From: an uncultured virus (IMG/VR IMGVR_UViG_3300042397_001885)
Lineage: Duplodnaviria; Heunggongvirae; Uroviricota; Caudoviricetes
Virus record (IMG/VR): IMGVR_UViG_3300042397_001885
Direction: 5' to 3' (one strand)
DNA: 64,000 nucleotides
Shown: in pieces, positions 2,070 to 38,370 of the stretch
Layout: every line of letters begins with the position of its first letter
Numbering within the stretch: position 1 is the stretch's first letter
Position numbers and translations under genes: made by a program
The notes under the pieces: generated by a model
Told to the model about the DNA's origin: nothing
The model's input: the letters and a program-made list of their open reading frames with translations, nothing else
The model's database searches: none

Positions 2070-3284
2070 TTATTCAAAATCCTTATAAATAAAGCGACCT
2101 GAGTCAAAGTCAATATCTACCATAAATTCTCCACAAAATCCGTGACGATTTTTTCTAAAGATACATTCAAGAATTGTACTTCCAGTCGCACGACCCAAAG
2201 CCAAAACCCAGTCAGCATCATATGCTAGCTGCTTTGACCAGGCTACTTGACCAAGTGAGGGGACACTATTCATGTCTGTAGCATCATCAGGGGTAGCGGA
2301 GGCAATTGCAACTATTGGAACTTGAGAAGAAATTGCAAGAACTTTTAATTCTCTAGAAATATTTTTAATTTTTACAACTTCGTTATCATTTCCTTGATTT
2401 GAATTCATCAACTGAATATAGTCAACAAATACAACATCTGGTGAGTACTGGTCTATCTTTCCTCTAATAACAGAAGGAGATACATCTGCAAGACCATCAT
2501 TAGAAATGATATAGAATGGTGGTCTATCTTTTAAATTTTGCTTAGCCCAATTTTCAAAGCCTTCAATATCAATCATACCTGCACTTAATTTTCTATGTGA
2601 GAAATATCCTTCAGCCATAATTGTGTAGACACGATTTCTAACTTCCTTCTCTGTCATTTCAAGAGAAACTATTAACGGTTTCTTGCCAGCTTTCCACGCT
2701 TGTACAGCCATAAAAATAGCGAGCCAAGACTTACCAATGGCAGGGTAAGCAAGAAGAATGCCAAATTGACCAGGAGCAATGCCACCAGGTAGATAGTTAT
2801 CAAAACCTGCCAAGTTCGTTCTAACGCCGTGTATACCTTTTTCACTTAACTCCTTAATGTTTATAAAGTGTGCAGAAGCATCTTCTACATCTGTTGCATC
2901 AATATCTCTTACATCAGAACTAATTCTCTTAAGATCTGATGTTTTTGAAATTATCGAATTAAGAGCTTCAATTGGTTGATGATCGTTTAATTGCTTTGCA
3001 CTAGTCATCAATGCATTTCTTAAATGGTCTTCAAGAAATTGAGTTCTTAACTCTTCTAGATGATGCTTTGTTGTACCAATTTCCCCTACTGGCTGAAAGT
3101 CTCTAAACTTTTCTACCAATAAAGACTGTGTTGGAACGGTAGAATTTTGCTCATAATAATTTTTTACAAAATCCCAAACATCTTTATGTGTTCTAAATAG
3201 GGTATCTGGATTTGCTTGAAAAAGCACATGAATCTGTTTATCATTTAAAACTGCAGATAGTACTTTTGCTTCTAAATCAGACAT
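2070..3284 (-). CDS. DnaB-like replicative helicase
   Basis: Walker A AYPAIGKS, SLEM, VFVDYIQLM, ISRELKVLA, YDADWVL, KNRHG. Confidence 0.95.
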   Translation of the reverse strand: MSDLEAKVLSAVLNDKQIHVLFQANPDTLFRTHKDVWDFVKNYYEQNSTVPTQSLLVEKFRDFQPVGEIGTTKHHLEELRTQFLEDHLRNALMTSAKQLNDHQPIEALNSIISKTSDLKRISSDVRDIDATDVEDASAHFINIKELSEKGIHGVRTNLAGFDNYLPGGIAPGQFGILLAYPAIGKSWLAIFMAVQAWKAGKKPLIVSLEMTEKEVRNRVYTIMAEGYFSHRKLSAGMIDIEGFENWAKQNLKDRPPFYIISNDGLADVSPSVIRGKIDQYSPDVVFVDYIQLMNSNQGNDNEVVKIKNISRELKVLAISSQVPIVAIASATPDDATDMNSVPSLGQVAWSKQLAYDADWVLALGRATGSTILECIFRKNRHGFCGEFMVDIDFDSGRFIYKDFE

Positions 3285-7129: not shown

Positions 7130-10100
7130 TTAAACCTCCATCAACCTTAATTGACTTTGAACATCCGAAGAAGATCTGTTGTATGTAGCAGATATTACTA
7201 CAAACTTCTTGTTCTCATCCACTAGCTTAACTCCTTCTGGTAAGTCAAAATCTATCTTAACGATATCTCCAAGTTGTATATGAGAAGTTCCAAAAGTATC
7301 TATTTCAAAAACCTTTCTTGGTTTAATAGTTTTATCTAGAATCCACTTCATAACATCTTTTGCAGAGTCTTCATTTTGAATATAAACAGAATCTAAAGAA
7401 AATGATTTGTTTCCATAAATAGCCCTACTGTTCTTAATGTTATCATAAATTTTTTCTGACCTTTCTGGAGAAATTATTAAATTATTTTCTGTAATAACTG
7501 GATCAGAGAAGTTCGATAGTTCCTTAAAGTAATCGTCTACAGTAAGGACATTTGATATATTTTGAGTAAAAGTTATTCCTTGAATCATAATTCTATTGGT
7601 AGAATTTTCACTCAAGTCTATTGCCTTGTCTGTTGTATTGAATAATAAAAACTCTGCTCCATATGATCCTGGCAAAAATCCAGAAATTTCATATGATTTT
7701 TCAACAGTAAATGGGGGAACTATTTTTGCAATTAATGCTGGATAAGCTTGGTCATACTTAATATTAAAATATGCACATTCTCTTAAAATTGTGCCAAACT
7801 CTTCAAAATAAAAATCTACAGTTGGTCTTGTCTCTGTTCCAATGGAAGACATGTATGTTCTTTGAATTGCTGCTGGAAGGGAATACTTTCTCAGAGATTC
7901 TGCAGAAAATGCTCCTTCAATTTTTTCAAGCAAAGGGGTGTCGTTTTCTTTTATATTCTTTAGGGCATAAATATTTTCAAACATACATCTGCTTGAACCT
8001 CTAGTAAATAGTCCAGTTTTTAATCCATCAACTGGCATTTGTAATGGAGTTTCGTCACTTACTATTCCAATTAATACATTGTTTAAGTATATGGAAAAAT
8101 CTATTCTTGATATTCTTGATCCATTTCTAGAAATTTGTACATCCAAAGATAGATCGTACACTGGAATTTCTTGAGAAGTTGCCCTGTCAGATCCTATAAA
8201 CTTTCCTTCATCTACAAGAATTCTTGCAAGAGACCCCCAAAGCTTTTTAGGAACTGCAATATTTGTTTTTCCAGTTTTCTGTCTAAGGTATGGTCTATTT
8301 TCAACTTTATAAAAAATTATGTTTTCAATAACTGGTTCATATGATACTGAGCCAGAAGATACTGAGCCAGAAGATACTGAGCCAGAAGATACTGAGCCAC
8401 TATTAGTAAACTCTTTTAAAACATCTGAAGAAAGGGATGCAATTTCAAGGTAGTATCCAGAGTTTGTTATTGGATCTAGCATGTATCCAATTCCTCCAGC
8501 TCCACCAGAAAGCTCTTTTACATTTAATCCTCCTGTGGAACTATTTTGATCAATATCAAATAGTTTTATAGAATTTAAAGCAGACTGAGTATCGTCATCT
8601 TTTTGTTTTCCAATAATTCTCATTCTAGTTCCAACATGAGTATAATCTGTATCTAAACTTTTATAAACATAGTTTACTAAATCTGTTTCAGTAGTAGCAG
8701 ATAGTTCTGTTCTGTTAAATACTGGGTTTGCTAAAGATGGTACTGGATATGGTCCTGAAAAAACTAAAGCTGAGGACTGAATTCCAGCAGTGTCTTGCTG
8801 ACTATAGCTAGAAAATCCTTCTGTTCTTGTTGATTGTTTCATAAAGTTTGCAATTTTTCCATGAACTAGGGATTGGCTTTTAGAAATTGGATCATCTCCA
8901 AGTGGCATGGCGTAGTTGTACCTTGGTGGCTCATCAGAAATTTGAGTCATATTAAATCCTGACATGTATCCAAAAACATTTTGTGTACTAGAATTAGCCC
9001 TTATTATCATTCCAGTAATTACATTTTTTCTATAAGGGCTTAAATTTCTATATACCCCTACCATTTCTGCAGCCCTTACGCTGTATGCTAATGGATCAGT
9101 GTATCCCATTGCTTTGGCAATATAGTGCTGCTCACTTCCTCTTCCATAGGATAGTCTAGGATTTAAAATACCTTGAACAAACTCACTGTCTGTATAAAAT
9201 TCATAAGGTATTATAGTTGTAATTGGCACTTCAAGTTCCAAGTTGGGAAAAAATTTTGCAGGAATAGTGCTATAAATATTTCCTGAGTCCATTCTAAAAG
9301 ACCTTCTATTGTCTGGATCTTCCCAGTAAGGATTTAGTCCTGCAAAGTGATTTACTATTCCAGTACCAAACTGACCTCTACCATGAGACCTAACATCTCC
9401 GTTTTTATATCTAACATTTTCTTCAAGGTTCTCAAAATTTGATCCAGAAGCATTCTCGTAGTAAGGTTCTGTATAGATTCTAAGCAGCCCTGTAAGAGTC
9501 ATTTTTCCATTAAATACCAAGTTTGAAAAATACTTTTGATACTCATTATTACTTGTTATCCAAACAAGACCATTTGTAGCAGAAGCAGACGGGGCATCAA
9601 CGTGATACTGTTGAGCATCATATCTTATAATTTCTCCATTTGCATACAAGTATCCTTGAAACCTTGGTAGCCAAAACGCACTTTCTCCAACATCAATTGT
9701 GTTGTTTACAATTTGATGATTTCTTACATACGGAGCAAAGTCTGGTAAGCTTGTATTTAAAGTTACAGCTCCAAGTGCATACCCTGTATTAGCGGTTGGC
9801 TGATTTATAGTTCTTAATTCTTTTTGATCTCCAAGCTCCCAAAGGATAGAGCTCTTATATCCATAGGTTCTTTCACTTAGGCTAAGACTTGCTTGCTCTA
9901 GTCTTGAAACTTCTCTTTGAATATATCTAGTAGTGTAGTTAATTTGACCATCGTTTAAAATGTTTGTTTCAAATCCTGCAATAGCCTCAATATTTGGAAC
10001 AAAGTTATCAGTTTTTTGACCATATAAGTTTGTGAGTCTTTCTGATATTGCTAAATTATTATCTCTAATAGAGATGTCTGGCATCAAATATTCTTTTGGC

Positions 10101-11986
10101 ATGATAACAAAGTTATTGTACTCGTCAAAAAACATTGCAGTTTGAGTAGACTGTGCTAGTCTTTGTAAAATTTCTGAAACTGAAGTGTCTGGTTCAACAA
10201 AGAAAAAAGGTATTACAGGATCGTTTACAGAGGTTATATTTTTAAAGACATAGTTACTAAAACCTATGTTATCAAGAAGAAGTGCTGCTGCCATGGTTAG
10301 GGTACAATTTTGTAAAAATATTGGTGCAGCTTTATTTGATTCTAGAATAAAATATGCATCTCTTAAGTCTAAAGATATATCTTCCATGCCACTGGTTGCA
10401 ATAGCTGCATTTTCTGAGTAAAATGTTTTTAGTGGAATAAATTTATCATATCCATTAACATTAAGAACTGCTTCATAAAAGTCAAATTTAATTTGTGGCT
10501 TAAGATTGTTTGCAATAATGCTCCCAGTTTTATCCTCTTCGTCAAAAACATTTAACTCTGTAAAAGATCCGTCATGGTTTGACAAGGATACGTTTCCAGT
10601 TGAAGCAACAAGACCTCCAACGGGAAGACCATAGTCTGTTGCCATAATGTTTTTAGTAATTTCATAATCTAAAACATAATCAGTTATGTTAACCTTTAGT
10701 CTTGGAGATATTTCAATTAAATCAAAAGTTTTATTTGGAGCATACATAGTTTCAACAACTAGCCTAATTCCCTTAACAAAGGCAAATTCTCTATAGATGT
10801 CAGTACCTTCAATGTTAAAGTATTCTGGATTTAATATTTTTTTAACTAGTCCAAGCCTTTTTGTATCGTCATCTTCTAATAGTGAAAATCCATATTCTAC
10901 ATCATAGTCTGCCCACTCTTCATCTTCCTGGCTCCAAACATAAAGAGTTCCTGCATTAGTTGATGAGGCTCCAACTATATATGCATCTCCATCTCTTGTA
11001 TTGTTAGAAAAATTGTACAAACTAGTGTCTGGTAATTGATCAAAAGAATCTAAATAGCTATATAGGTTAAAGTTTGTTCTAAATCTTTCTGGAATTTTTA
11101 TTCCATAATATACTTCTACATATCCATCCCAAGGAACAATTCTTGACCCATCTCTTCTAGTAGACGTTTCATCAAACTGTATTGCGTCAGCCCAGTTATT
11201 GTTTTCATCAAGGTATTGTATTTTCCATTTTTTTGGAACAGAAGATTTTGATATATCTTTCATTGGATCTGCTATTAAAGAATTGTTTCTTCTAATTTCT
11301 TCAGGAACTAGAGAGTCTCCATTAACACCAACTGCTGCTGGATCAGCTAGATTAGTTTGCATCTTTACGACTATTCTATTTGTAGCTACCTTGTTTTTGT
11401 AAGTAACAAATGGGGCACAGTCTTTTATTTTGTAAGAAGGATTATCAGTGGTAAAAAATGTAGCAACCTGACTAGATATTCCAAACTCTTGACCAGATTC
11501 TTTTCTATAAGAGTTCCAGTATTTAAAGTTGTCAAACCTTGAAGAAAAATAATACCTTGGTCTTCTTCCAGATCTAAAGCTGTCAACAAACTTGGTATTA
11601 TTAATATTAGACTCTCCAAAATACAACATCTTGTTGATTCCAGATCTAGGTCTAAAAGGCTTAATGCAATCCTTTAAAGAGTAGTAAGATTCTCTATCAC
11701 TTTCTTTTGTAATAAAAGTAACTGGCTCATCTGGGTCTTCTGTTTTATATTCAGAAATGTAGTTTGAATCCAAGGCATTGGTATAAGAATTTACAACATC
11801 TTGTGGATCATATTCTGGATAAATATTTCTATATACTACATCTGATCCATCTGGTCTAAACCTATAGTTACCATAGTTTTCAAGGTTAGTAAAATCATTT
11901 TGATTCCACTCTGCAATAACCAAGGAATCTATGGATACACTATTCTTTGTTTTAAGATGGTTAATTAAATCATTATCTGAAAACAT
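7130..11986 (-). CDS. large minor tail protein (hub/central fibre-like), 1618 aa
   Basis: Two genes after the tape measure; LQRLAQSTQTAMFFDEYNNFV and C-terminal HIQLGDIVKI hub-like motifs. Confidence 0.8.
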   Translation of the reverse strand: MFSDNDLINHLKTKNSVSIDSLVIAEWNQNDFTNLENYGNYRFRPDGSDVVYRNIYPEYDPQDVVNSYTNALDSNYISEYKTEDPDEPVTFITKESDRESYYSLKDCIKPFRPRSGINKMLYFGESNINNTKFVDSFRSGRRPRYYFSSRFDNFKYWNSYRKESGQEFGISSQVATFFTTDNPSYKIKDCAPFVTYKNKVATNRIVVKMQTNLADPAAVGVNGDSLVPEEIRRNNSLIADPMKDISKSSVPKKWKIQYLDENNNWADAIQFDETSTRRDGSRIVPWDGYVEVYYGIKIPERFRTNFNLYSYLDSFDQLPDTSLYNFSNNTRDGDAYIVGASSTNAGTLYVWSQEDEEWADYDVEYGFSLLEDDDTKRLGLVKKILNPEYFNIEGTDIYREFAFVKGIRLVVETMYAPNKTFDLIEISPRLKVNITDYVLDYEITKNIMATDYGLPVGGLVASTGNVSLSNHDGSFTELNVFDEEDKTGSIIANNLKPQIKFDFYEAVLNVNGYDKFIPLKTFYSENAAIATSGMEDISLDLRDAYFILESNKAAPIFLQNCTLTMAAALLLDNIGFSNYVFKNITSVNDPVIPFFFVEPDTSVSEILQRLAQSTQTAMFFDEYNNFVIMPKEYLMPDISIRDNNLAISERLTNLYGQKTDNFVPNIEAIAGFETNILNDGQINYTTRYIQREVSRLEQASLSLSERTYGYKSSILWELGDQKELRTINQPTANTGYALGAVTLNTSLPDFAPYVRNHQIVNNTIDVGESAFWLPRFQGYLYANGEIIRYDAQQYHVDAPSASATNGLVWITSNNEYQKYFSNLVFNGKMTLTGLLRIYTEPYYENASGSNFENLEENVRYKNGDVRSHGRGQFGTGIVNHFAGLNPYWEDPDNRRSFRMDSGNIYSTIPAKFFPNLELEVPITTIIPYEFYTDSEFVQGILNPRLSYGRGSEQHYIAKAMGYTDPLAYSVRAAEMVGVYRNLSPYRKNVITGMIIRANSSTQNVFGYMSGFNMTQISDEPPRYNYAMPLGDDPISKSQSLVHGKIANFMKQSTRTEGFSSYSQQDTAGIQSSALVFSGPYPVPSLANPVFNRTELSATTETDLVNYVYKSLDTDYTHVGTRMRIIGKQKDDDTQSALNSIKLFDIDQNSSTGGLNVKELSGGAGGIGYMLDPITNSGYYLEIASLSSDVLKEFTNSGSVSSGSVSSGSVSSGSVSYEPVIENIIFYKVENRPYLRQKTGKTNIAVPKKLWGSLARILVDEGKFIGSDRATSQEIPVYDLSLDVQISRNGSRISRIDFSIYLNNVLIGIVSDETPLQMPVDGLKTGLFTRGSSRCMFENIYALKNIKENDTPLLEKIEGAFSAESLRKYSLPAAIQRTYMSSIGTETRPTVDFYFEEFGTILRECAYFNIKYDQAYPALIAKIVPPFTVEKSYEISGFLPGSYGAEFLLFNTTDKAIDLSENSTNRIMIQGITFTQNISNVLTVDDYFKELSNFSDPVITENNLIISPERSEKIYDNIKNSRAIYGNKSFSLDSVYIQNEDSAKDVMKWILDKTIKPRKVFEIDTFGTSHIQLGDIVKIDFDLPEGVKLVDENKKFVVISATYNRSSSDVQSQLRLMEV
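8343..8399. repeat. perfect 15-bp tandem repeat x3.8 encoding (SGSVS)n
   Basis: GATACTGAGCCAGAA x3 + GATACTGAGCCA. Confidence 0.95.
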
Positions 11987-12624
11987 TATACCTCCTCAAT
12001 AGAAATAGATATGTCCCATAGATCGTGATTAGACCCACCTCTTTTGACAACGTTGTAACTAAAGTCTGAGAAAAATACTTCTAACACTTCTGAATACTTA
12101 TTTAAACTAGTATATTTTCCAACAGTAAAACTTTGAGGCTTGTCGTAAGATAAAAATGCATAAAATGATCCTGGATTTGTTTTGTACCATTCTAATAGCT
12201 CTGATCCTCCAGCACCGCCATCTGCTGTATATTCTATCAAGGTGTGCTCTGCTGGAAATAGTCTTGGATTTTTTGGAGTATCTGGAACCAAAGAGTCTGA
12301 TGTTTGAATTCCATTTTCATCAAACTCTGGATCTTTGCTGTAAGATCTTGAAGGAAGCATGTCATAAGAAAAAGATATCTCCATCTTATCTGCAATATGA
12401 TAAGAACGCATATGACCATTTACCATTCTTTTTTTACTTTCAATTCTATTAGCATTAAAAGAAATGTCACTTCTATTATGGTCAGAAAGTATTAAGAAGT
12501 CTTGTCCTTCAACTCCAGAAATTTGTGGAACACCATTTAAAATTCCTCCAGAGTTATTTGAAAAAATAATTGCTTGTGGTCTTTCCCACTTTTTTCTAGA
12601 ATTTAAATATGCACTACTAACCAT
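11986..12624 (-). CDS. distal tail-like protein
   Basis: Immediately after the tape measure; RMVNGHMRSYHIADK, ends WDISISIEEV. Confidence 0.7.
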   Translation of the reverse strand: MVSSAYLNSRKKWERPQAIIFSNNSGGILNGVPQISGVEGQDFLILSDHNRSDISFNANRIESKKRMVNGHMRSYHIADKMEISFSYDMLPSRSYSKDPEFDENGIQTSDSLVPDTPKNPRLFPAEHTLIEYTADGGAGGSELLEWYKTNPGSFYAFLSYDKPQSFTVGKYTSLNKYSEVLEVFFSDFSYNVVKRGGSNHDLWDISISIEEV

Positions 12625-15600
12625 TAGTATCTATTGCTCCTTAAATTTCCTCTATTTTGCTGTGAAAGCTTTGCCATAACTACATTTGCAATATCGTCTG
12701 GTGAGGCATCTGTTCCAGCAACATTAACATTTAAGTTATATACATTATTATACATTGTTTCAGTAACTCTTGCATCACTAATTCCAGTATCATATCTTCC
12801 AGAATCACTAAAGCTAAACTTAGGCTCCTGCATGTTTGGCATTTTAAAAGCACCCATATTTATTGCTTCAAGCAGTGACATTCCATATTTATCCACCATA
12901 GATCTTCTTACTACAAATTCTCCAGGGGTGAGCATTGCAGATATACTGTCAGTATTTCCAGGTCCTGCAACAAGACCTCCACTGTTATATCCAGAAAATG
13001 CTTTTGATGTAGAGGCTCTTGCTTCTTTTACTAACTCTGTAATCTCTTGCCTTCTTGCTTCTGAAAGAGCCCAATAAACATTGTCCATCTCGTCTGCTTT
13101 TACTGTTCTAGCAGTTGGATTCGAATAGCCCAACTTTCTGGCTATGTAATGCTGCTCACTTCCATTTCCATAAGAAACTTTTGAGTCTTTTATTCCAGCA
13201 TTGAATTGAGCTTTTGTATAATAGCTATAAACAGGTGGTGGTGGCGGTGGTGGCGGTGGAGGTGGTGGCGGTGGAGGTGGTGGAGGAGGCGGTGGTGGAG
13301 GAGGCGGTGGTGGTGGAGTTACTGGAGTTACAGCAGCTACAGGAGTTGGAGCAGCAATTACTGCAGCAGCTCCTCCTCCGCCACCAGCACCCAATGTTGT
13401 ATTTGCAGCAGCTCCAGGATTTCCAATGTCAGCTGCTGCAGCTGCTGCCTGAAGGGTATTATAGGCATCAATATAATTTTGAAAATCTATTAAAGCTTGA
13501 CCAGTTAACCCCTGTGCTCTTAAGGCTTCAATATTTTGTCTCATTTTTATTAACAAAACTTGCTGTTCTAACTTCATTCTTTGATCATCTAGTACTTTTT
13601 GTGCAAGAGAGTTAGCATAAAGTTGGTCTTGAATTAAAATCATGTCTTGTTCATTTTTGTAAATAGTCTCACCAAACTGAGATATTTGTTCTGTAATTTG
13701 CTTTCTTGTCATCATTACACCATTTACAGAAACTGTTAACGATTCAAGTTCTTTTTGTCTTTTTGCTTCAAGTGCTGCCCTTGCGTCCTCAATTCTAAAC
13801 TGTGCCTCTTCTTGTTGCATTGCACTTGCTGCACCTGCTGCAGCAGAAATATCTCCAGATGCAAGTGCTGAAGCTAGGTCTAATCTTGAACGATCTTTTT
13901 GAGCAATTCTATCATTTGCATTAGCAACCTTATCAAGAGCCTTTACTCTATCATCATAAGTTGTATTAATCTTTTCTTCTTCTTTTGCTAACAAATCAAG
14001 AGCATGGTTTCTTAAACTTATTTGACGTTGTATTAACTCATTTTCTCTTTCCATTCCAGAAAGGGAGTTTTGTAATGCAGAATTCTTAATATTTATTGCT
14101 GAAGATTCTGCATCTATTGCATCCATTGTTCTTTCTTGAGAAGTCTGTGTTAAATAATCAAGTGCTCTTTGAACATTTAGCTGAGAAGTTAGCTGTTTTA
14201 CATATTCCTCCCTTTGTGTAGTAGTCATTGCAAGATACTTTTCTGTATCTATCATTCCCAAAACTTCTGCCCCAGCAGCAGCAGCGATTGGAGAAATTGC
14301 ATTAAAGTAATTTTGCATTTCTTGAGTTTGTTGTTGCATGTCTGTAATTTCCATTGCAGCTGCTAGCTTAGCCTGTGCCAAAGTCTGCTTATTTAGCTCT
14401 GCAATATATGCTTTTCTTTGAGCAGTGTTCATAGCAAGGAATGCTTTTTGATCAATCATTCCTTCAATGTCTGAGCTTATTGCAACACCTAGTCCACCTA
14501 GTGCAGCAGAATATTTTTGCATATCGCTAGTTTGTTTTTTGGCATCTGCAAGTGCCATAGTTGCTGCTAGCTTAGCTTGTGCTACTGATTGTTTATTCAG
14601 CTCTGCAATGTATGCCTTTCTTTCTTCAGTAGTCATAGCAAGGAATGCTTTCTGGTCAATCATTCCTTCGATATCTGAAGTTATTACAACACCCAAAGAG
14701 TTAAGTGCTTTTGAATATTTTTTCATATCTGCTGTAGCTTTTTGAGTTTCTGCTAAAACTGTTACTGCATTTAATCTTTGTTGATACGCAATTTGCTTTT
14801 GCATTTCTTTAATCAATTTCTTTCTATTTTCAGTAGAAAGATTCATGTATACATCTTGAGGAATCATGCTAAGGGCTTCTATATTGTTAGCTGTTGCAGC
14901 ACCTTTAACTAGGTTTGTGTAATTTTTAAGAACTTTGTTATTCGTAGTAGCATCTTTTAAGAAAGTTTTTGCTTGAGCCTTTTTGCTAGGAGGCTTTGTT
15001 CCGCCAGAGCTACTACCGTTGTCATCAGTATTAACAACTGTCTGAGGAATTACTGACTGGATAGCTTTTTGTTGATCTGCTACAGCTTTTTTCCAAACCT
15101 CTAGTCTCTTGTAGTAGGCTGACATTTCTGCAGGAGCTCCTGACTGAGGAATAGTTGGTGCATTTCCAACTGACATAGTTGCAATGGTAAATGATGCTAA
15201 ATATGATTTTTGCTCACTTGCAGGAAGTGCACCAAAGGCATCTACTTCTGCCTGTGTCATGTCGTACCCAGTACTTTCAAATACAACGCTCTTTACTTTA
15301 GCTTCATCTCCACCTAGAGAATCAAACATTTCTTGAGCTTTTTTATTTGCAGCCTCTAACTCTTTAACTGGATCTTTTCCAGGTCCTTTGAGTGCGGTAT
15401 AGATTGCCTGAGCATCTGCTCCCTTTGGCATAAGTTCTGCAATTTTATCAATAGCATCTTTTTGTGTTTTATAGAATGCATCTACATCTTGTTCTTTATT
15501 ATCTCCAGAGAAATATTCCATTGCTAGAGATAGGTCATATCCTTCTGGAAGACTATTTAAAAGCTGTGCAAATTTTTCAACATTAGCAGTTGACTCTGTT

Positions 15601-18600
15601 ATCTTTGCTTGATCTTCTGCACTTACCCCTGAAATTCCACTTACTAGTTGAGAAGTAGTGACACCCATCTTATTTACATTAGGAAGTGCAGCACTAACAT
15701 TGCTTGCCATAGTATTTGCTCTTGCAGCCTGTTGTTCAGGAGTTAGGTTCACAAGATTAGATGCTGCAGATTCAGCAAACTTTCTAATTTGTTCCTTTTC
15801 TGCTTCAGCCCTAATTTCTTCTGAGGTTAAGCCATCTGCTGCTGCTGTAACTAGTTCATCTGCTATTTTTGCATAGATGTCTGTTATGTCTCCAATTTTT
15901 GCTCCAGCATTTTCTTCAGTTATTCCATCCAAAGTGCTTGCCATAATTCCAGTTACTACATCTTTTTGAGCTTGATCTAGCTTGTCCATATCTTTTTGGA
16001 ACAGCTTATTTGAAATACTATCAGTTGTTACATTAGATGCAACTGCCTGAGCAGTATCTCCCTTAAATCCAGAAAGCACTAACTGGTCTTTAATTCCTTG
16101 TGCCTGTGCATCTGCACTTGCTCCAATGTCTATAGCCTTCTTAACTCTTTCATACTCAACTTGTCTCATTTCATTAATTTGTTTTAAAGAAGATTCGAAC
16201 TGAGTATCTGTTATTAATCCTTTAGACCTTTCTTCATTTAATAAAGATTCGGCATTGTTTAATTCTTTTAATGTTTGAATAGTTGCTCCAAATGATTTGG
16301 ATGACTCTGCAACCTGTTTTTGTTGATTTTTTATTGCTAGATTGTAAACTGCTATACCAGCCACTAATCCAACTACAGCACCAGCTACAGCACCAACAGC
16401 AGTTCCAACAACTGGAACTACTGATCCTATTGCACCACCCATTGCTGCTAGCTTTGCAGTTGATGCAGCGATTGCAACTCCTGCACCTAAACCTGCAGCT
16501 AACCCAATTCCTCCATACTTTACATTGGAACTAGTTCCAGCAGTATTATTTCTTTTTGCCTCTTCAGCTTTTGCTTTTTCAAAATCTGAAACCGTTGAAG
16601 AGTCTGCAGCTGCCTGTCTTTTAGAAATTTCACTAATCATTGCTTGAGATCCACTTTGAAGCCTTCCAGATCTAATAAGAGCTACTGTTTTTGATTTTAA
16701 TAATGAATCGTCTAATGCAAAAGCTATTGCAGATCCAAAAGACTCTGCTTTTTTAGGATCCATTCCATCTGCTATTGCAAATGTTAGCATTGATGCAACT
16801 TTCTCATACCTTTCTTCAGAAGAAGCACCCTTTAAGTCTTCTACAAGCTTTTTACCCTCATCAGTATCAAAGAAAGGCATCATTTCAGCAGCACCTTGTG
16901 ACTGCTCTTCTGTAAATCTAAAGTCTTGTACTGAAGATCTTGTTGACGCAAATCCATAACCAGTTGCAGCACTAATTGTTTCCATTCTATTTGCTGCCCC
17001 ACCAAGGTTTGACCCAAATTCTGCAGCTGATTTAGCAGTATTATCCATATCCTTTTTAAACATTAAGAATCCTGCAGCAGCAGCTCCTACTGCTAGGGTT
17101 AGTCCTCCTAAAATTGGACCAAACTGTTGAAGCATTGGAAGAATAGCCATAGCACCTCCAGCAGCCATCATCATTTGCTGTTGCTTTGGATCTTCTACAA
17201 AACCTGAAGCCATCATTGGAATCATTGAAGCCATCATCATTCCTTGACCAGCTTTTTGCATTCTTTCTGCTCTAAGAGCCTTTGCTTCAGGAGTTCCCAT
17301 AGCTGCCCTTGTGTTTGCCACAGCCTGTTTTGCATCTTGCATTCTTGGAACAACATTCCATTTTCCATAATCTTTAATAGAATTTTTTAAATTATTTGCT
17401 CCATTTGCAACAGACTTACTTGTATCTTTAAAAGAAGTTAACATTGGTTTGGCTGCATCTGAAATTGCTTTTCCAGATTCTTTATATGCGTCTAATATAT
17501 ATTTTGGACCTGTTTTTAATGCTGCCTGGACTGGTGCAATTTTTTCAGCAGAACCCATTCCACTAAAGACATTGTATCCAGTGGCGGATCTTGATTGCTG
17601 GTATGATGCTGAAGGTCTAATTCCTTTTATTCTTTGAGCATTTGTCAATGAACCAAGAGGGTTAACATAGTCTCCAAGACCATACCTTCTTGTTTCTCCG
17701 TTATTAATTGCCTGTAGCAAAGGAAGATTTTTTGCAGTAGCATCTTTATTAATTACAAACTCTCCAGGAGTTAGCATTGCAGGAACTGTATCAGTATTTC
17801 CTACACCTGGAACAAGAGTTCCACTATTTGCCTTTAGCACTCCTTGGAATCTTGAAGCACTTGTATATATCTCTCCACTTAAACCTCTAATTGAAGTAAG
17901 GTCTCTAAGCATAATTGCAGAGTATGCTTCATCTGCATTTTTATATCCAGATGCTCTTGCTAACTCATCTAATTTTGATCTATCTCCAATTCTAGAAGGT
18001 AGTTTAAAGGAAGACACTCTTGCAATAGCTGACTCAACAGCATCATCATACATTTTTGTAAATTGTGCTTTAGTTAATTTTTCACGAGCAATAGAATCTC
18101 CAAGCATTTTAACAAAGTCTTTTGATGCCCCTGTTTTTTCAATAACCTGTGTAATTGCTTTTGCTGTATATGCTCCAGTATTTGTTGCTTCATTTCCAAA
18201 ACTAATTTCAGATCCAGTAGCTCTTCTAAATACACCTTTTGAATTTCTAATTAGCTTAACACCTGCAGCACCAGGATCAATTGTTGCAAGTCTTCCTCCA
18301 CGAGTTGAAATAATATTTCCAGCTGTTGCATCCATATCTCCAAGCATTGATGAGGCAGGAATTTGCTTGACAAGTTCTTTAGTAGAAAGAGTTGATCCTG
18401 ATTTCATTCCTGGAATCATTGGAGCAGTTGTTGCAAATATTTCTCCTTCAGGACCGTCCATTCTTACAATTCTTGATCCAGGGGTTGCAGTTCCTGCAAT
18501 TGCTCTTCTTGCCGCATTTCCAATTAATTCTGCCTGAGCTTCTTGAAGAGTTTGAAATGGCTTAACAAACATTTTTCTGCCATTAACCTCATAAACTCCA

Positions 18601-21600
18601 GCTAGGCTTCTAAACCTACTACTATGTCCTTCTGACTCTGCAATCTTTGTTCCAGAGAACTTTTCAAATTGGTTTTTTGCAACAACACGATTTGGCATCA
18701 TTCTGCCAAAATATTGCATACCTCCAACAGCTCCACCAGCATTAAAATCTTGAACTTCTGCATGTGCATTGTTATATGTGCGACCTGCATTATATCTTTG
18801 ATTTGAATACGATAATCTTCCAGGTATAGGTCGTGACTGTCCTGCATTTATTTCAACTCGTGTTCCATCACTTGCAGTATATATGTATGTACCACCTCTA
18901 GGAGCATTTGGAACAGGTTCAAACTTTGGATGTATGCCACCAGTATCACTAAATCTAATAGAATCCTTAATGTATGGTTCAAACCTTTTCATTGATCTTG
19001 AACCAATTTCTGTATTCATTATTCTTGCTGTAGACAACAATCTTTCTTGAAGAATAGTTGAAAGATTTGCTGCCCTTAATGAGTCAACAATAATTCTTCC
19101 GTATTCAGGATCTGAAAATTTATGAGATTCTGGAGACCTTTTAACAATTTCTATAGCCTTAGATCTTAGTGCTGAGTCAATTCTTGAATAATGAGCAGGA
19201 TCAAGGTTAGCTTCATCTAATATGTGTTTAAATGGAGAGACTGGAGTTGAGGTTCCATGAAGTTGAGGATTTAGTGCAAAAAGATCTTCCATTTCTTTTC
19301 TAGCAACGCCAAGATTAGGGTTGCTCACTCCACGCCTCAGACTATTATTAAAGTCAAACTCTTTTCCATAGCTGGTATCACCCTCAAGTGCTGGACCCTC
19401 TCTTTTATATCTTGGTGTTGGAGTGATAAGTCTTGCCTTTTCACCCATAACATTAGCTGGAGCTCCTAGTGCTACCAAGTCTGCCGTTAGTTCATCTATA
19501 ACACTCTGTGGTGCGTTACCAACGCTTTGAACATTTCGAATAGGTCCTTCCTGTACATCTTGTTGAGCTCTTTGTTGGTTGGGCGATGTTCGTCTTGCTG
19601 TCACATTTTTTGGTTTTAAAGCTCTTTGGTTTTTAATACGATCTTGTCTTGATAGCAGTGAAAGATTTCCAAATCTTTCTTCAAGACTTATCCCTTTAGC
19701 CTGAGCTTCAGGTCCAAACATTCTAAGATATCTTTCCTTAATAGCCTGATTTCTTGCTTGACTATTTCTTAAAACCATTGATCCAAGATTGTATCCAGGA
19801 ATCATTCCGCCCTTATTAAATTTATTTCCACTATTGATTGCATCAAGAAGTGCATAATTTTTTGCAGTTGCCTCTTTGTTTACAACAAACTCTCCTGGAG
19901 TAAGCATTGCTGGAACGGTGTCAGTATTTCCAACTCCTGGAACCTGTGTTTCTCCAGATACAAATATTGGTCCACCAGCATTTCTTCTAAGGGCTCTAAC
20001 TGTAACAGAACCAGTTTTACCTGCACCTGCTGCAGCTCCTGCCATACCTGCAGTTTTAAATGCTGGATTAAATGCTGCTGCCTGTGCCTGTGCTGATATA
20101 AGAGTTCTGTACTCTGCAGTAAGCTTTGCCACAGCTATTCTTGCAATATCTGTAGAAGTAGCCTGTTCTAGCATTGCTGCTTTAGCAATATGTGTAGCAG
20201 ATGACAATTGCTTTGCAGCAGTTGCTGCTTCTAGTTCTTCAATTGATAAATATTTGGTAGATTGCGTAAGTGTTCTTATTGCTGCTATTGGACCACCCTT
20301 AATAAGTGACTTTACGAAAATTGCAATTCCATGACTAATTTTTCCAAGTGTTCCAAGCAAGTTAATTAAAAGACCAAGAAACATTGTTCCAGCAGGAATT
20401 ACGACACCAACAAGGACTGCTGCTATTGCTGCAAATTTCTTTTGACCATCAGATAGCCCATTAAATTTTTCAACAATAGTTGTAAGAAAATTTACAAAAG
20501 GAATAGCAAGTTTAACAAATATCTCTCCAATTGGTTCAAGAGATAGCTTTAATCTTTCTACTGCTCCAATAAGCTGTGTTCCTAAAGCATTTTCTACAGC
20601 ACTAAGTTCTTTTTCTGCTGTAGTTTTTAATGCTGCAACATCATACTCCATTAATTGTAAAACTTGACTTGCTTGAGATCCATCTCTAACAATATTTTCA
20701 AACAAAGCTCCAAGTCTTGCATACTGATACTTTCCAAAAACTTTTTCTAATGCCTGTTGCTTTGAAAAATCATCCAAGCCTTTAAGTGCCTCACCAAAAG
20801 CAAATACTGTTCCCATCAAATCTCCACGATTTGTAGAAATTATCTTATCTAGATTAATTCCAAAACTTCCCAAAGTTTCTGTTGCTGCTTTTGTTGGATT
20901 AATTAAAGATGCAAGACCAGACTTTAGTGCGTTAGCACCCTGTTCTGCACTAACACCACCTTCTTGCATTGCTGCAAGGAATACTGACATGTCTCGTACA
21001 TCTCCACCAAGACCTTTAATAACTGGGGCAACTCTTGGAATTGCTGCAGACAAGTCTTGCAAAGAAACTACTGTTTGATTTTCAACCATATTTAAAAAGT
21101 TAATTGTATCTGCAAGGTCTTCTCCAGAAAGTCTAAAAGCAGATTGCAGGGCTATTGTAGTCTTTAAAGCTTCTTGCTGCTCCATCTGACCAAGAGTTGC
21201 TAGTCTTGTTGCTTGTCTTGTTGCATCTATTAAGTCTGCATTTCTTGCACCAGAAGCTGCTGCATTTGCAGCCATTCCAATAGTATCTTTTACTGCAATT
21301 CCATATTTTGTATATTCTTCAGCAAGTTGTCTAACTTGTGCAATATTTTGATTTACTTCTTCTGGAGTTGTAAAAGCATCTCCATAAACCTTTTTAAGAT
21401 TAACTAATTCTTTTTCAATATCCATAAAGGTTTTACCTGCGACTGTTCCTAAAACAGTTAAAGGTACGGTAAAGCCAACCATAAGCTGACGACCAGCCCA
21501 CTGAACATTTTTACCAAAGTTAATCATGTGGGTTGTTCCCTGTCTAAACATTGTATTTAGAAGGGCTTGTCTTTCTGCTGCAATTGCTGCTTTAGAGGCA

Positions 21601-22031
21601 TAGGCATCTAGAGGTCTAATTGCAAGAGCTTCACCCATACCTTGTGCAGAAGCACCAGTTGAAATAAATTGTGTTTGCAAGGTAGAAGCTCTTCTAGCTG
21701 CAAGAGACATTGTTTCTGCAAACGCTGCACTATTTCTATTAAATGCAGAACTAAAAAATTGACCTAAAGTTCCTCTTCCTCTTTTTAAAGTGTTGTCAAG
21801 ATTTGCAGCAGCGGAGTTTAACTTTACAAACTCTGAAGTAAAAACTCCAGTTGAATTTATTGCTTTTGAAAGATCTCTTGTATAGTCAGTAGCAAATTTA
21901 GCTTGGGCTAGATTTCCCTTGGAAAGGGCTGAATTAAAGGAGTTAATTTGTAGTTGGAGCTTTTTTAGCTCAGCAGCAGCAGACCCAGTGTTTATCTGGA
22001 TATCAATAATGCCTTTAGCTACTCCAGCCAT
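12624..22031 (-). CDS. tape measure protein with internal cargo domains, 3135 aa
   Basis: Follows the chaperone pair; TP901-type core (GANALKSGLASLINPT), Ala-rich helices, hydrophobic segments, three GNTD.(V/I).AMLTPGEFV motifs. Confidence 0.93.
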   Translation of the reverse strand: MAGVAKGIIDIQINTGSAAAELKKLQLQINSFNSALSKGNLAQAKFATDYTRDLSKAINSTGVFTSEFVKLNSAAANLDNTLKRGRGTLGQFFSSAFNRNSAAFAETMSLAARRASTLQTQFISTGASAQGMGEALAIRPLDAYASKAAIAAERQALLNTMFRQGTTHMINFGKNVQWAGRQLMVGFTVPLTVLGTVAGKTFMDIEKELVNLKKVYGDAFTTPEEVNQNIAQVRQLAEEYTKYGIAVKDTIGMAANAAASGARNADLIDATRQATRLATLGQMEQQEALKTTIALQSAFRLSGEDLADTINFLNMVENQTVVSLQDLSAAIPRVAPVIKGLGGDVRDMSVFLAAMQEGGVSAEQGANALKSGLASLINPTKAATETLGSFGINLDKIISTNRGDLMGTVFAFGEALKGLDDFSKQQALEKVFGKYQYARLGALFENIVRDGSQASQVLQLMEYDVAALKTTAEKELSAVENALGTQLIGAVERLKLSLEPIGEIFVKLAIPFVNFLTTIVEKFNGLSDGQKKFAAIAAVLVGVVIPAGTMFLGLLINLLGTLGKISHGIAIFVKSLIKGGPIAAIRTLTQSTKYLSIEELEAATAAKQLSSATHIAKAAMLEQATSTDIARIAVAKLTAEYRTLISAQAQAAAFNPAFKTAGMAGAAAGAGKTGSVTVRALRRNAGGPIFVSGETQVPGVGNTDTVPAMLTPGEFVVNKEATAKNYALLDAINSGNKFNKGGMIPGYNLGSMVLRNSQARNQAIKERYLRMFGPEAQAKGISLEERFGNLSLLSRQDRIKNQRALKPKNVTARRTSPNQQRAQQDVQEGPIRNVQSVGNAPQSVIDELTADLVALGAPANVMGEKARLITPTPRYKREGPALEGDTSYGKEFDFNNSLRRGVSNPNLGVARKEMEDLFALNPQLHGTSTPVSPFKHILDEANLDPAHYSRIDSALRSKAIEIVKRSPESHKFSDPEYGRIIVDSLRAANLSTILQERLLSTARIMNTEIGSRSMKRFEPYIKDSIRFSDTGGIHPKFEPVPNAPRGGTYIYTASDGTRVEINAGQSRPIPGRLSYSNQRYNAGRTYNNAHAEVQDFNAGGAVGGMQYFGRMMPNRVVAKNQFEKFSGTKIAESEGHSSRFRSLAGVYEVNGRKMFVKPFQTLQEAQAELIGNAARRAIAGTATPGSRIVRMDGPEGEIFATTAPMIPGMKSGSTLSTKELVKQIPASSMLGDMDATAGNIISTRGGRLATIDPGAAGVKLIRNSKGVFRRATGSEISFGNEATNTGAYTAKAITQVIEKTGASKDFVKMLGDSIAREKLTKAQFTKMYDDAVESAIARVSSFKLPSRIGDRSKLDELARASGYKNADEAYSAIMLRDLTSIRGLSGEIYTSASRFQGVLKANSGTLVPGVGNTDTVPAMLTPGEFVINKDATAKNLPLLQAINNGETRRYGLGDYVNPLGSLTNAQRIKGIRPSASYQQSRSATGYNVFSGMGSAEKIAPVQAALKTGPKYILDAYKESGKAISDAAKPMLTSFKDTSKSVANGANNLKNSIKDYGKWNVVPRMQDAKQAVANTRAAMGTPEAKALRAERMQKAGQGMMMASMIPMMASGFVEDPKQQQMMMAAGGAMAILPMLQQFGPILGGLTLAVGAAAAGFLMFKKDMDNTAKSAAEFGSNLGGAANRMETISAATGYGFASTRSSVQDFRFTEEQSQGAAEMMPFFDTDEGKKLVEDLKGASSEERYEKVASMLTFAIADGMDPKKAESFGSAIAFALDDSLLKSKTVALIRSGRLQSGSQAMISEISKRQAAADSSTVSDFEKAKAEEAKRNNTAGTSSNVKYGGIGLAAGLGAGVAIAASTAKLAAMGGAIGSVVPVVGTAVGAVAGAVVGLVAGIAVYNLAIKNQQKQVAESSKSFGATIQTLKELNNAESLLNEERSKGLITDTQFESSLKQINEMRQVEYERVKKAIDIGASADAQAQGIKDQLVLSGFKGDTAQAVASNVTTDSISNKLFQKDMDKLDQAQKDVVTGIMASTLDGITEENAGAKIGDITDIYAKIADELVTAAADGLTSEEIRAEAEKEQIRKFAESAASNLVNLTPEQQAARANTMASNVSAALPNVNKMGVTTSQLVSGISGVSAEDQAKITESTANVEKFAQLLNSLPEGYDLSLAMEYFSGDNKEQDVDAFYKTQKDAIDKIAELMPKGADAQAIYTALKGPGKDPVKELEAANKKAQEMFDSLGGDEAKVKSVVFESTGYDMTQAEVDAFGALPASEQKSYLASFTIATMSVGNAPTIPQSGAPAEMSAYYKRLEVWKKAVADQQKAIQSVIPQTVVNTDDNGSSSGGTKPPSKKAQAKTFLKDATTNNKVLKNYTNLVKGAATANNIEALSMIPQDVYMNLSTENRKKLIKEMQKQIAYQQRLNAVTVLAETQKATADMKKYSKALNSLGVVITSDIEGMIDQKAFLAMTTEERKAYIAELNKQSVAQAKLAATMALADAKKQTSDMQKYSAALGGLGVAISSDIEGMIDQKAFLAMNTAQRKAYIAELNKQTLAQAKLAAAMEITDMQQQTQEMQNYFNAISPIAAAAGAEVLGMIDTEKYLAMTTTQREEYVKQLTSQLNVQRALDYLTQTSQERTMDAIDAESSAINIKNSALQNSLSGMERENELIQRQISLRNHALDLLAKEEEKINTTYDDRVKALDKVANANDRIAQKDRSRLDLASALASGDISAAAGAASAMQQEEAQFRIEDARAALEAKRQKELESLTVSVNGVMMTRKQITEQISQFGETIYKNEQDMILIQDQLYANSLAQKVLDDQRMKLEQQVLLIKMRQNIEALRAQGLTGQALIDFQNYIDAYNTLQAAAAAADIGNPGAAANTTLGAGGGGGAAAVIAAPTPVAAVTPVTPPPPPPPPPPPPPPPPPPPPPPPPPPPPVYSYYTKAQFNAGIKDSKVSYGNGSEQHYIARKLGYSNPTARTVKADEMDNVYWALSEARRQEITELVKEARASTSKAFSGYNSGGLVAGPGNTDSISAMLTPGEFVVRRSMVDKYGMSLLEAINMGAFKMPNMQEPKFSFSDSGRYDTGISDARVTETMYNNVYNLNVNVAGTDASPDDIANVVMAKLSQQNRGNLRSNRY
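13233..13316 (-). repeat. 28 consecutive proline codons in the tape measure
   Basis: 84 nt of CCN codons with mixed third positions. Confidence 0.95.
14150..14950 (-). repeat. four copies of a 68-aa (204-bp) repeat in the tape measure
   Basis: Equivalent Leu codons at 14232/14436/14640 and Met codons at 14661/14865; core SDIEGMIDQKAFLAM.T..RKAYIAELNKQ. Confidence 0.85.
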
Positions 22032-37275: not shown

Positions 37276-38370
37276 TTATAACGCAAGAATTTCTTTGCAA
37301 ACTCTATCCCAGTCATACCCTGTTTGTTTCATTGAAAACTTTTCAGATATAATTTGAAAATTCTTATCTCTTTCTTCAAGCCTTACTTTTGGATCTAACA
37401 ACTCTTCCATATGACTAGTCCATTCATCTGGAGTATTTGCAATTCTTCCAACACCAGCATCTGAGAATAATTGATACTCTGGAAGTCCTCCAGAAGCAAT
37501 GAATGGAACTCCTGCTGCTGCATTCTCAAGACCTTTTAAATAAGACTTTGCGTGATTAAATGGAACGTTTCTTAACGGGACAATGCCAACATCCATTTTT
37601 CTAAATAGTTCTGGAACATGAAGCATTGTTTTCATTGGTTCAACTGAGCAATATTTTTTATCAATACCAATTTGCTGAGCTGCTGTTGGGGCATTAATAA
37701 TGTTTCCTGCATGATGAAACTTCAGATGTTTCTTTTTTAAGAACTCTCCAAAGAAAGGCTTTAAAGTTTCAAGGTCTCCAGATCTCCAAGGAGTTGCACC
37801 AACCCATCCAAACGTTGGAAGACGACCAGAAAAATCTTTTCTTTTTATACCCCAGCGTTCAATGTCTATTCCATTTCTAACTAAATATACTGGCTTTTCT
37901 GGATACTTGTTTTGGTAGAAGTCTTTTAAAAATGGAGTAGAAGTTATTAATGCATCTGCTTGATTAATAATTGCAATGTAGTGATCCCTATTGTTATTTG
38001 GATTTGAATCTGGATGAGTAGTTTTGTATGCAAGATTTGTTTCTTCAAGACCTTCCATATGGTCATCAATATCAACTACAATTTTTTGACCAAGCTCTTT
38101 AGCCTGTCTTACTTGATCAACAACTCTTTCAAGCATAATAAGTTTTAAAACAATAATGTCCCAGCCATGTATTGCTTTTTCATCTGGAATTAAAATACCA
38201 AATCCATGATCTGGATTAAAACCTGGAAGACCTATTCCAGTTTCCCAGCCATGCTCCTTCAATTGCTTCATTGGAAGATATGCTCTATACCAACCACACC
38301 CATTTGGCTGTAATGGTTTTATACCAAAAGTCCAGTCATAAGTTAAAAAAGCAATTGTTGGAGATGGCAT
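37276..38370 (-). CDS. glycosyltransferase (GT-B, GT4-like)
   Basis: GCGWYRAYLP, VVDIDD, NGID, GWVG, DVGIVPL..FNHAKSYLK.LE..AAGVPFIAS. Confidence 0.9.
   Translation of the reverse strand: MPSPTIAFLTYDWTFGIKPLQPNGCGWYRAYLPMKQLKEHGWETGIGLPGFNPDHGFGILIPDEKAIHGWDIIVLKLIMLERVVDQVRQAKELGQKIVVDIDDHMEGLEETNLAYKTTHPDSNPNNNRDHYIAIINQADALITSTPFLKDFYQNKYPEKPVYLVRNGIDIERWGIKRKDFSGRLPTFGWVGATPWRSGDLETLKPFFGEFLKKKHLKFHHAGNIINAPTAAQQIGIDKKYCSVEPMKTMLHVPELFRKMDVGIVPLRNVPFNHAKSYLKGLENAAAGVPFIASGGLPEYQLFSDAGVGRIANTPDEWTSHMEELLDPKVRLEERDKNFQIISEKFSMKQTGYDWDRVCKEILAL

Follow-up and report, generated by a model that had tools for sequence, protein, structure and literature searches.

A narrowly distributed, predicted five-helix module in the tape measure protein and a large tail protein of an uncultured freshwater phage

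Why should one phage carry the same small domain in two different proteins of its tail? The question is raised by a 64,000-nucleotide stretch of DNA from an uncultured freshwater phage (IMG/VR IMGVR_UViG_3300042397_001885; referred to here as the window, G+C 32–38%), in which both carriers of the domain are encoded on the minus strand. One is an ORF of 3135 amino acids (12624..22031, minus strand) which is assigned as the tape measure protein (TMP) by its matches to Pfam (PhageMin_Tail, 1.3e-27) and to the tape measure families of PHROGs (best 5.4e-96). The other, two genes downstream, is a large tail protein of 1618 amino acids (7130..11986, minus strand) in the tail-associated or hub (Tal) position, with a match of 2.6e-59 to PHROG 10359, a 'minor tail protein' family. 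The gene between them (11986..12624, minus strand) encodes a protein of 212 amino acids that occupies the distal-tail-protein position by gene order only; it has no match in Pfam and a weak match to PHROG 1194, a family of unknown function.

The large tail protein has 2731 homologs (E<=1e-5), and its closest cultured relatives are actinophages, with residues 394–861 being ~25% identical to minor tail proteins of Streptomyces and Rhodococcus phages. Megablast of the region's DNA against cultured phages gave no match, and the MAG bins holding homologs of the tail protein belong to seven unrelated taxa. The clade of the window is one of uncultured freshwater siphophages.

The TMP copy of the module, termed module A (TMP residues 2935–3016; 12984..13229, minus strand), and the tail-protein copy (residues 928–1012; 8951..9205, minus strand) were delimited by translation, BLASTP and MAFFT and are ~82–85 amino acids in length. 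The initial annotation, made by inspection of the window, had described a gapless likeness of ~80 amino acids with 36 of 78 residues identical; both peptides that it quoted are exact minus-strand translations, and the MAFFT alignment returned the same 36 identities in the first 78 residues and 39 overall. By BLASTP, 39 of 85 residues are identical (46%, E 2e-26), and an HMM of the module matches P0003 at residues 928–1011. The common 14-mer TGCTGCTCACTTCC, which codes for the conserved G-S-E-Q-H, was likewise confirmed at 9126 and 13150, with no further occurrence in the window and none expected from 100 shuffles; the translations also bear out that SG[YF]N directly follows both copies. Of the 246 nucleotides in the TMP copy, 135 (55%) are the same in both copies, indicating that the copies represent an old duplication and not a recent repeat. 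A six-frame scan of the window located the module in its two carriers and in no other ORF, which argues against a general cell-wall-binding domain, since this would be expected in a lysin too.

Relatives of the module were then sought in sequence and structure libraries. Nothing was recognised in Pfam, PHROGs, PDB sequences, Foldseek searches (PDB and BFVD) or the ESM Atlas, in keeping with its original description as an unknown domain. When nine module members were compared with Pfam at E<=10, using HMMER filters that discard most weak matches, no family was matched, carbohydrate-binding ones included; the best E from a PDB sequence profile was only 0.35, no usable match came from the ESM Atlas, and none from a tblastn search of cultured phages with the module. 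A profile built from the two copies found 10 matches at E<=0.001 among 1.84 billion representatives: five are TMP C-termini (P0005–P0008 and P0010) and the remaining five are spurious, being repeat proteins in which several short stretches each match in part. No cellular homolog was found among these representatives, and the profile search that had been suggested as a check on the module led only to phage TMP clusters and to no well-known domain. Eight matches were obtained from a word-indexed collection of 5.8 billion proteins (150–2000 amino acids), six of them TMP fragments and two tail proteins, and a metagenome contig scan with the nine-sequence alignment produced 45 pattern matches, none of which was confirmed. 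A match to the core of the module that lies out of frame within the TMP gene of G002 (i-E 0.002) was taken as chance because neither the window nor L079 has it. The module could be placed in no described family and its distribution is very narrow.

In TMPs the module lies near the C-terminus in a constant order of coiled coil, stiff linker, module and last TPGEF motif. The linker of the window TMP is a run of 28 prolines (residues 2906–2933; 13233..13316, minus strand) that ends one residue ahead of the module, in agreement with the initial placement of the module right after a proline rod. Relatives have PA, PT or TPV repeats or an Ala/Lys/Glu-rich stretch at this position, and the module in TMPs is always preceded by a stiff linker. 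Right after the module come the third 'PG.GNTD..AMLTPGEFV' motif (residues 3025–3040) and the sequence that follows it (12822..12983, minus strand), with PHROG 35029 matching in three stretches. Motifs similar to this one are present in the TMPs of cultured phages.

The module is carried by seven of the 120 TMP homologs listed, and comparison of related backbones showed that it is exchanged as a unit. P0140 has module A, while P0143 and P0146, which have near-identical flanks, have a different module B, and L019 does likewise; P0010 has module A on an L039-like backbone, with its alignment to L039 ending at the site; and some near-identical TMP backbones have no module at the site at all. The site is a fixed cassette position for at least two alternative modules. 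Homology between modules A and B was considered and not upheld, the comparison giving only a 22-column local match with a probability of 38.7%. The segment ahead of the second TPGEF motif was considered as a degenerate copy of the module and rejected (hhalign probability 2.2%). Precomputed Pfam labels on related TMPs comprise a 'B domain' and one other; in those TMPs that were re-scanned, the former lies in upstream repeats, outside the module.

In the large tail protein the module forms part of an insertion by comparison with the closest homolog, P0019, which has no module. The inserted segment (residues ~918–1027; 8906..9235, minus strand), as defined by alignment, consists of a short linker, the module and a second short linker. 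Outside the insert P0019 is 83–97% identical to the window protein over stretches of 100 residues, and in the stretch 901–1000 the identity is 81% across the 21 residues aligned. The insert, of ~100 amino acids, falls within a spacer that is itself little conserved and separates two conserved blocks; among 91 homologs that span the site this spacer is 142 amino acids long and contains the module in two, and is 37–46 amino acids long in the remaining 89. In a further 53 viral loci where the tail protein is complete, it never carries the module, and L079 has a module in its TMP and none in its 1508-amino-acid tail protein. Copies from tail proteins group as a single clade (support 98/100), and the module was probably acquired as a single copy in one sublineage that includes the window. 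An AlphaFold2 model of tail-protein residues 600–1300 (54-sequence alignment) had a mean pLDDT of 60.9, with means of 35–49 for blocks of the insert, and gave no Foldseek match at E<=0.001. Relatives of the two proteins omit or replace the module, a point on which the initial annotation had called for comparison; its proposal that a mobile module has been put to use twice at the tip of the tail is supported by TMP backbones that swap or omit the module and by its presence/absence as an insertion in the tail protein.

A mobile segment could in principle be a filler or spacer with no specific ligand, hitch-hiking by recombination into two regions that tolerate insertions. The module is indeed dispensable in close relatives, and other inserts are tolerated at both host sites. 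This explanation is very unlikely, however, when the residues that have been retained are considered: the paralogs are only 46–51% identical, yet residues 19–30 are identical at 11 of 12 positions between the window copies and E-Q is invariant; and the tail-protein modules of the window and G002 are 96% identical compared with 67–92% for 100-residue stretches in the rest of the protein. Taken together, the conserved 19–30 block and the 96% identity point to selection on a surface site.

The structure prediction that had been asked for was carried out with AlphaFold2 and gave a confident five-helix bundle (pLDDT 84.6, pTM 0.76), with helices at module residues 6–13, 25–32, 37–40, 45–54 and 57–72. 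The 12 copies that were compared have a pI of 8.2–9.5 and a net charge of +2 to +5, and the module is predicted to be an independently folding, mildly basic five-helix unit of ~80 residues. The fold has no recognised match, with none at E<=0.001 when the model was compared by Foldseek with PDB and BFVD. In VIA-align, where helical bundles below Z ~13 may share merely a common arrangement, the best structural neighbours were SAP domains at Z 5–7; these fill four of the best nine rows and derive from three proteins, namely FAN1 (Z 7.0 over 61 residues, rmsd 3.0, with a second entry at Z 5.8), PIAS1 (Z 5.8 over 62 of 65 residues, rmsd 2.5) and rice SIZ1 (Z 5.0). ET domains (Z 5.1–5.2) and CARD/PYD domains (Z ~4–4.6) were other weak neighbours, all below the noise level. 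Helical domains that bind DNA or protein, and not known wall-binding folds, are the best neighbours. CW_7 and PG_binding_1 are small helical wall-binding repeats; neither was matched in Pfam (E<=10) or appeared among the best 50 structural rows.

The place of SAP domains in this ranking and the basic pI of all copies would fit a nucleic-acid-binding role like that of SAP/HeH domains, in which the module handles the end of the phage DNA at ejection. The predicted fold shares with FAN1, PIAS1 and SIZ1 a four- to five-helix arrangement, with 61–65 residues superposed at an rmsd of 2.5–3.0. We nevertheless consider this function very unlikely: sequence identity to the SAP domains is 9–12%, the Z scores of 5.0–7.0 are under the level of ~13 for helical bundles, the corresponding Foldseek E values exceed 1 and there is no Pfam SAP/HeH match even at E<=10. 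Furthermore, a net charge of +2 to +5 is small, and DNA binding would give no reason for a copy midway along the tail-tip protein.

Sequence comparison of the 12 copies showed E25 and Q26 to be invariant; H27 and Y28 vary, with A/Q in P0010, a Y to K change in P0017 and the order E-Q-Y-H in P0139. The remaining invariant positions are hydrophobic or glycine; apart from E25, no acidic or nucleophilic residue is conserved. The initial suggestion that E-Q-H-Y could be a catalytic core did not withstand this comparison, in which only E and Q are invariant, and no hydrolase fold or family was matched; catalysis is without support because the H and Y of this tetrad are not conserved. A small muralytic or envelope-cutting enzyme with E25 as its catalytic residue would account for the invariant E25-Q26 behind a Gly-rich loop, and wall-degrading motifs have precedents in TMPs and tail-tip proteins as described in PMC1796659 and PMC10038345. 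Such an enzyme is nonetheless most improbable given a helical bundle of this composition, the variation at H27 and Y28 and the failure to find any lysozyme-like or lytic transglycosylase match in Pfam, PDB sequences or the listed structural matches; the invariant Glu stands in no context that is recognised. Neither does the module have host homologs among the 1.84 billion representatives, by contrast with the mycobacteriophage motifs.

The latter, numbered 1–3, are small motifs embedded in mycobacteriophage TMPs that act on the cell wall; according to PMC1796659 they resemble the host proteins Rpf, Rv1115 and Rv0320/Rv1728c, and motif 3 of TM4 is a peptidoglycan hydrolase. Like these motifs, the window module is a small accessory embedded in the TMP (residues 2935–3016 of 3135) that is dispensable for tail assembly in relatives, and for it, as for them in that account (PMC1796659), an action on the host envelope at the time of injection is presumed. 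It differs from them in having no likeness to host proteins (profile search and Pfam at E<=10) and no hydrolase signature, and in that the phage encodes a further copy of it in another of its tail proteins.

The modules inserted into the Dit/Tal proteins of Streptococcus thermophilus phages are beta-sandwich folds. In these 'evolved' proteins, as PMC7533335 describes them, the inserted modules are carbohydrate-binding, and the window module resembles them in being an addition, missing from plain homologs and carried by some relatives only. It differs in that it is predicted to be all-helical, matched no carbohydrate-binding family or fold, and is also found in a TMP.

Work on other phages suggests where the two copies would sit in the virion. 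In T5 the TMP C-terminus is seated in a cup of the hub protein and expelled into the envelope, and the C-terminal unit of the T5 TMP, pb2, is a metallopeptidase that is separated by proteolytic cleavage, as set out in PMC10038345. By analogy the window module may, like this unit of pb2, be a functional unit near the TMP C-terminus that has its place at the tail tip before being expelled into the envelope (PMC10038345); unlike pb2 it has no peptidase motif and there is no sign of cleavage.

Both carriers would come together at the tip of the tail if the arrangement in T5 applies (PMC10038345), and the module could instead serve as a latch within the virion, binding a tail component or its own paralog and holding the TMP C-terminus until a trigger is received. 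The confinement of the module to two structural proteins and the presence of protein–protein interaction bundles (ET, CARD/PYD) among its weak structural neighbours are consistent with such docking, although every structural match is under the noise level of the tool. We regard it as rather unlikely. L079, with a module in the TMP alone, indicates that pairing with a tail-protein copy is not required, and a contact used in assembly should co-vary with the backbone, whereas near-identical TMPs swap or omit the module and the P0019 tail protein has none.

The most plausible reading, one of the two roles raised in the initial annotation, is that the module binds a component of the host envelope. 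We propose that it may be a non-catalytic ligand-binding unit at the host-facing end of the tail, for which the near-invariant aromatic-G-x-G-x-E-Q loop and helix cap are a candidate binding site. The tail-protein copy would sit exposed at the tip and the TMP copy would enter the envelope as the TMP leaves C-terminus first, with both binding one common envelope component, be it a polymer of the wall or a protein of the envelope. The results above show that the copies are homologous, what class of fold is predicted for them, that the module behaves as a cassette in the TMP and that the tail-protein insertion is polymorphic; location in the virion, ligand and role are inferred, and the account as a whole is offered tentatively. 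If the module does bind a host component, the cassette site would provide a handle on how uncultured freshwater phages are matched to their hosts after adsorption.

An extension of envelope binding, which we consider quite unlikely, is that the module is a new class of host-specificity determinant acting in two stages, with the tip copy reading the ligand outside and the TMP copy, on its rigid polyproline rod, reading it again inside the envelope once ejected. Were this the case, a swap of module A for module B would retarget a step after adsorption, and a TMP domain stored in the tail lumen would be a host-range cassette.

The module is new and very narrowly distributed, with a confident predicted fold and no relative in any library searched. 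Its behaviour also bears on the evolution of phage host-interaction proteins, for which a signal of fragment mosaicism in TMPs is described in PMC10684548, a large survey that was unable to confirm genuine recent cases. As in that report, the shuffling seen here is at fragment level and affects tape measure and minor tail proteins; by comparison with its TMP cases, the presence of alternative modules on near-identical TMP backbones, one of them copied into the neighbouring tail-tip protein, makes this locus an unusually clean example.

The module occurs in two genes of the minus strand, on which every gene of this region lies. One copy (12984–13229) forms residues 2935–3016 of the 3135-aa tape measure protein (TMP; 12624–22031), which matches Pfam PhageMin_Tail (1.3e-27) and PHROG tape measure families (down to 5.4e-96); the other (8951–9205) forms residues 928–1012 of a 1618-aa tail protein (7130–11986; PHROG 10359 'minor tail protein', 2.6e-59), encoded two genes downstream of the TMP gene, where the tail-associated or hub protein (Tal) is usually found. 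The peptides quoted in the initial annotation match the translations exactly and the similarity reported there is real: BLASTP gave 39/85 identities (E 2e-26), the same 36 identities were counted in the first 78 residues, the shared 14-mer was seen twice with none expected, and the 28-proline run preceding the TMP copy ends one residue before the module. DNA of the TMP copy is identical to that of the tail-protein copy at 135 of 246 positions, and the duplication is therefore old. The genes around both carriers (portal, protease, major capsid protein, an Ig-domain protein in the spot expected for the tail tube gene, TMP and minor tail proteins) make up the structural gene block of a siphophage; the nearest record to the window is an IMG/VR viral contig that contains 93% of the sampled words of the window.

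Neither copy matched Pfam or PHROGs, and nine members scanned one by one against Pfam at E ≤ 10 gave no relevant match. No match was obtained by tblastn against cultured phages and no usable one in the ESM Atlas; a PDB sequence profile search reached a best E of only 0.35. Searched against 1.84 billion representative proteins, the two-copy profile gave ten matches at E ≤ 0.001, five of them C-terminal parts of TMPs (P0005–P0008 and P0010); P0009 and P0011–P0014 were discounted as long repeat proteins scoring by several short partial matches. Eight proteins matched in a 5.8-billion-protein collection searched for proteins of 150–2000 aa: six TMP fragments and two tail proteins (P0015, 99% identical to that of the window, and P0016, 80% identical). 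The profile thus leads to no described family, in keeping with the earlier description of the domain as unknown; all members come from metagenomes, and literature searched by concept rather than by sequence yielded no description of the module. The module family has no earlier entry in the libraries searched. TMPs with embedded accessory modules and tail-tip proteins with module insertions are already known kinds; new here is that a single phage has one module in both of these proteins, and at a defined cassette site.

The tail-protein family comprises 2731 proteins at E ≤ 1e-5 (7999 candidates scored). Among the 91 of 120 listed homologs that were anchorable on both flanking motifs, the spacer is 37–46 aa in 89 and 142 aa in the two with the module (P0015 and P0016). 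The module is carried by the tail proteins of L008 (a locus of the related viral record G002) and L009 (a window-like locus), and is missing from all 53 other viral loci in which that protein is complete. The closest homolog, P0019, is 83–97% identical to the window protein per 100-residue segment outside the insert and 81% identical over 21 aligned residues in the segment holding it; its 'TNMA...YTSST' stands in place of linker, module and second linker (residues about 918–1027). The proposed mobility of the module is thus borne out in the tail protein, most homologs including the closest being without it. The G002 and P0016 tail proteins, which carry the module, are 67–92% identical to the window protein elsewhere, with a peak of 85–93% in residues 601–900 just upstream of the insert, and in the module itself the window and G002 agree at 96% of residues. 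The module has therefore undergone either precise loss or transfer by recombination between related genes. In an AlphaFold2 model of residues 600–1300 the insert, itself of low confidence, sits between moderately well folded beta-rich blocks. A run of SGSVS repeats lies at residues about 1196–1216 (window about 8339–8401), and near it two distant homologs (L053 and L060) have an 80-aa insert after about residue 1202; this region is a second insertion-tolerant site.

Every TMP carrier has the same order of elements: coiled coil, Gly-rich stretch, stiff linker, module, the last 'PG.G..D....TPGEF' motif and a conserved C-terminal end. The linker is 28 prolines in the window, PAPAP in G002, TPV repeats in viral locus L079, PAAST repeats in P0138 and an Ala/Lys/Glu-rich stretch in P0005, P0008 and P0137. 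The module (module A) is present in 7 of the best 120 TMP homologs that are at least 1724 aa long. With near-identical flanks, the same site is filled in P0141–P0146 and L019 (8740–9099) by module B, of 85–95 aa, with the invariant pattern GD.LFN.M..Y.KL...F..I....PG and no match in Pfam or in cultured phages; hhalign aligned 22 columns of modules A and B at a probability of 38.7%, and a relationship is not demonstrable at this level. Further relatives have other inserts at the site or none, so that module A behaves as mobile in the TMP as well. P0010 carries it on a different backbone, 65% identical to the L039 TMP; the two are near-identical just before the site, where the alignment ends and the L039 sequence differs. 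Among fetched viral loci the module HMM matched the TMP in three distinct contigs (L009, G002 through L008 and L078, and L079), or 3 of the 33 whose TMP C-terminal end could be identified by a strict pattern; with a looser motif, TMP ORFs were recognised in 55 of 74 loci.

In a tree of 12 module copies the three tail-protein copies form one clade (support 98/100) without a resolved place among the TMP copies, and the divergent P0010 copy occupies a long branch. The tree does not settle direction; because in L079 the TMP contains the module and the 1508-aa tail protein does not, and the TMP copy is more widely spread, the evidence suggests that the TMP copy is older and that the tail protein gained the module once.

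AlphaFold2 (nine-sequence alignment; pLDDT 84.6, pTM 0.76) predicts helices at module positions 6–13, 25–32, 37–40, 45–54 and 57–72. Foldseek searches of PDB and BFVD with this model returned nothing at E ≤ 0.001. Against 48,161 chains VIA-align placed SAP domains at the top (FAN1, Z 7.0; PIAS1, Z 5.8; rice SIZ1, Z 5.0), with ET domains (Z 5.1–5.2) and CARD/PYD domains (Z about 4–4.6) below. Since these values fall under about 13, where for helical bundles Z may mean a mere common arrangement, the SAP-likeness of the model is a lead and not a result, and a SAP-like DNA-binding domain would be a decidedly improbable reading. All copies are mildly basic (pI 8.2–9.5). F9, G21, E25, Q26, I29, A30, G34, M48, Y52 and I63 are invariant in the 12 copies, with Y or F at position 20; that the module is a tolerated filler seems rather improbable. 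The E-Q-H-Y core, put forward as possibly catalytic, is not maintained, H27 and Y28 being variable (A-Q in P0010, H-K in P0017, Y-H in P0139), and an enzyme is highly improbable.

In other siphophages the TMP C-terminus is placed in the hub-protein cup at the tail tip, from which it is then expelled into the envelope, and a C-terminal TMP fragment of T5 is proposed to act on peptidoglycan (PMC10038345). Small motifs are also embedded in mycobacteriophage TMPs, and one of these is a peptidoglycan hydrolase that helps infect stationary cells (PMC1796659). We tentatively favour a module that would bind a host envelope component non-catalytically, because of its position in both carriers and the stiff linker, its exchange for another module on constant backbones, its dispensability in close relatives and the strong conservation of loop and helix cap. 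An intra-virion docking element appears unlikely: for these features a host-interaction module under diversifying selection is a better fit than an assembly contact.

The TMP has three copies of a 'PG.GNTD..(P/S)AMLTPGEFV' motif matching PHROG 35029 (function unknown), at residues 701–716 (19884–19931), 1411–1426 (17754–17801) and 3025–3040 (12912–12959), all on the minus strand. The C-terminal copy resembles TMPs of Mycobacterium, Burkholderia, Ralstonia, Stenotrophomonas and Synechococcus phages (46.6% identity over 56 residues, among the Mycobacterium matches listed), and the motif is therefore widespread in TMPs; we know of no described role for it. Tandem units of about 55–60 aa ('...IEGMIDQKAFLAMT..(E/Q)RKAYIAELNKQ...') span TMP residues about 2310–2680 (window about 14000–15100), and P0008 and similar relatives have more copies, which would alter tail length; by the usual rule of 1.5 angstrom of tail per TMP residue, 3135 residues imply a tail length of about 470 nm. 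Within the G002 TMP gene, an out-of-frame ORF of 33 codons (L008:3916–4014) shows weak similarity to the module core (i-E 0.002); neither the window nor L079 has it, and the similarity is probably due to chance.

Among cultured phages, the closest relatives of the tail protein come from phages of Streptomyces and Rhodococcus (about 25% identity, residues 394–861); window G+C is 32–38%. Contigs with tail-protein homologs (L082–L089) are assigned to MAGs from seven unrelated taxa (Methylococcus, Flavobacterium, Aquiluna, Beijerinckiaceae, Chitinophagaceae, Acidimicrobiaceae and Acetobacteraceae) and look like mis-binned phage contigs rather than host evidence. Two very large ORFs, at 30876–34475 and 49845–53084 (1199 and 1079 aa), have no Pfam match, and the 1199-aa ORF, between the portal and ribonucleotide reductase genes, has no PHROG match either. 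Fibre-type genes with phage tail Collar and Mtd_N (major tropism determinant N-terminal) domains lie far from the tail module (56025–56996 and 57757–60093). Auxiliary genes of sugar chemistry (37276–38370, 43175–44080, 44080–44805, 45845–46825, 60212–60970 and 60971–61549) include a Polysacc_synt_2 dehydratase/epimerase, a GlcNAc transferase, two DUF6065 genes and a 2OG-Fe(II) oxygenase, with a weak, below-cutoff match to group 1 glycosyltransferases; these genes may modify DNA, virion or host surface.
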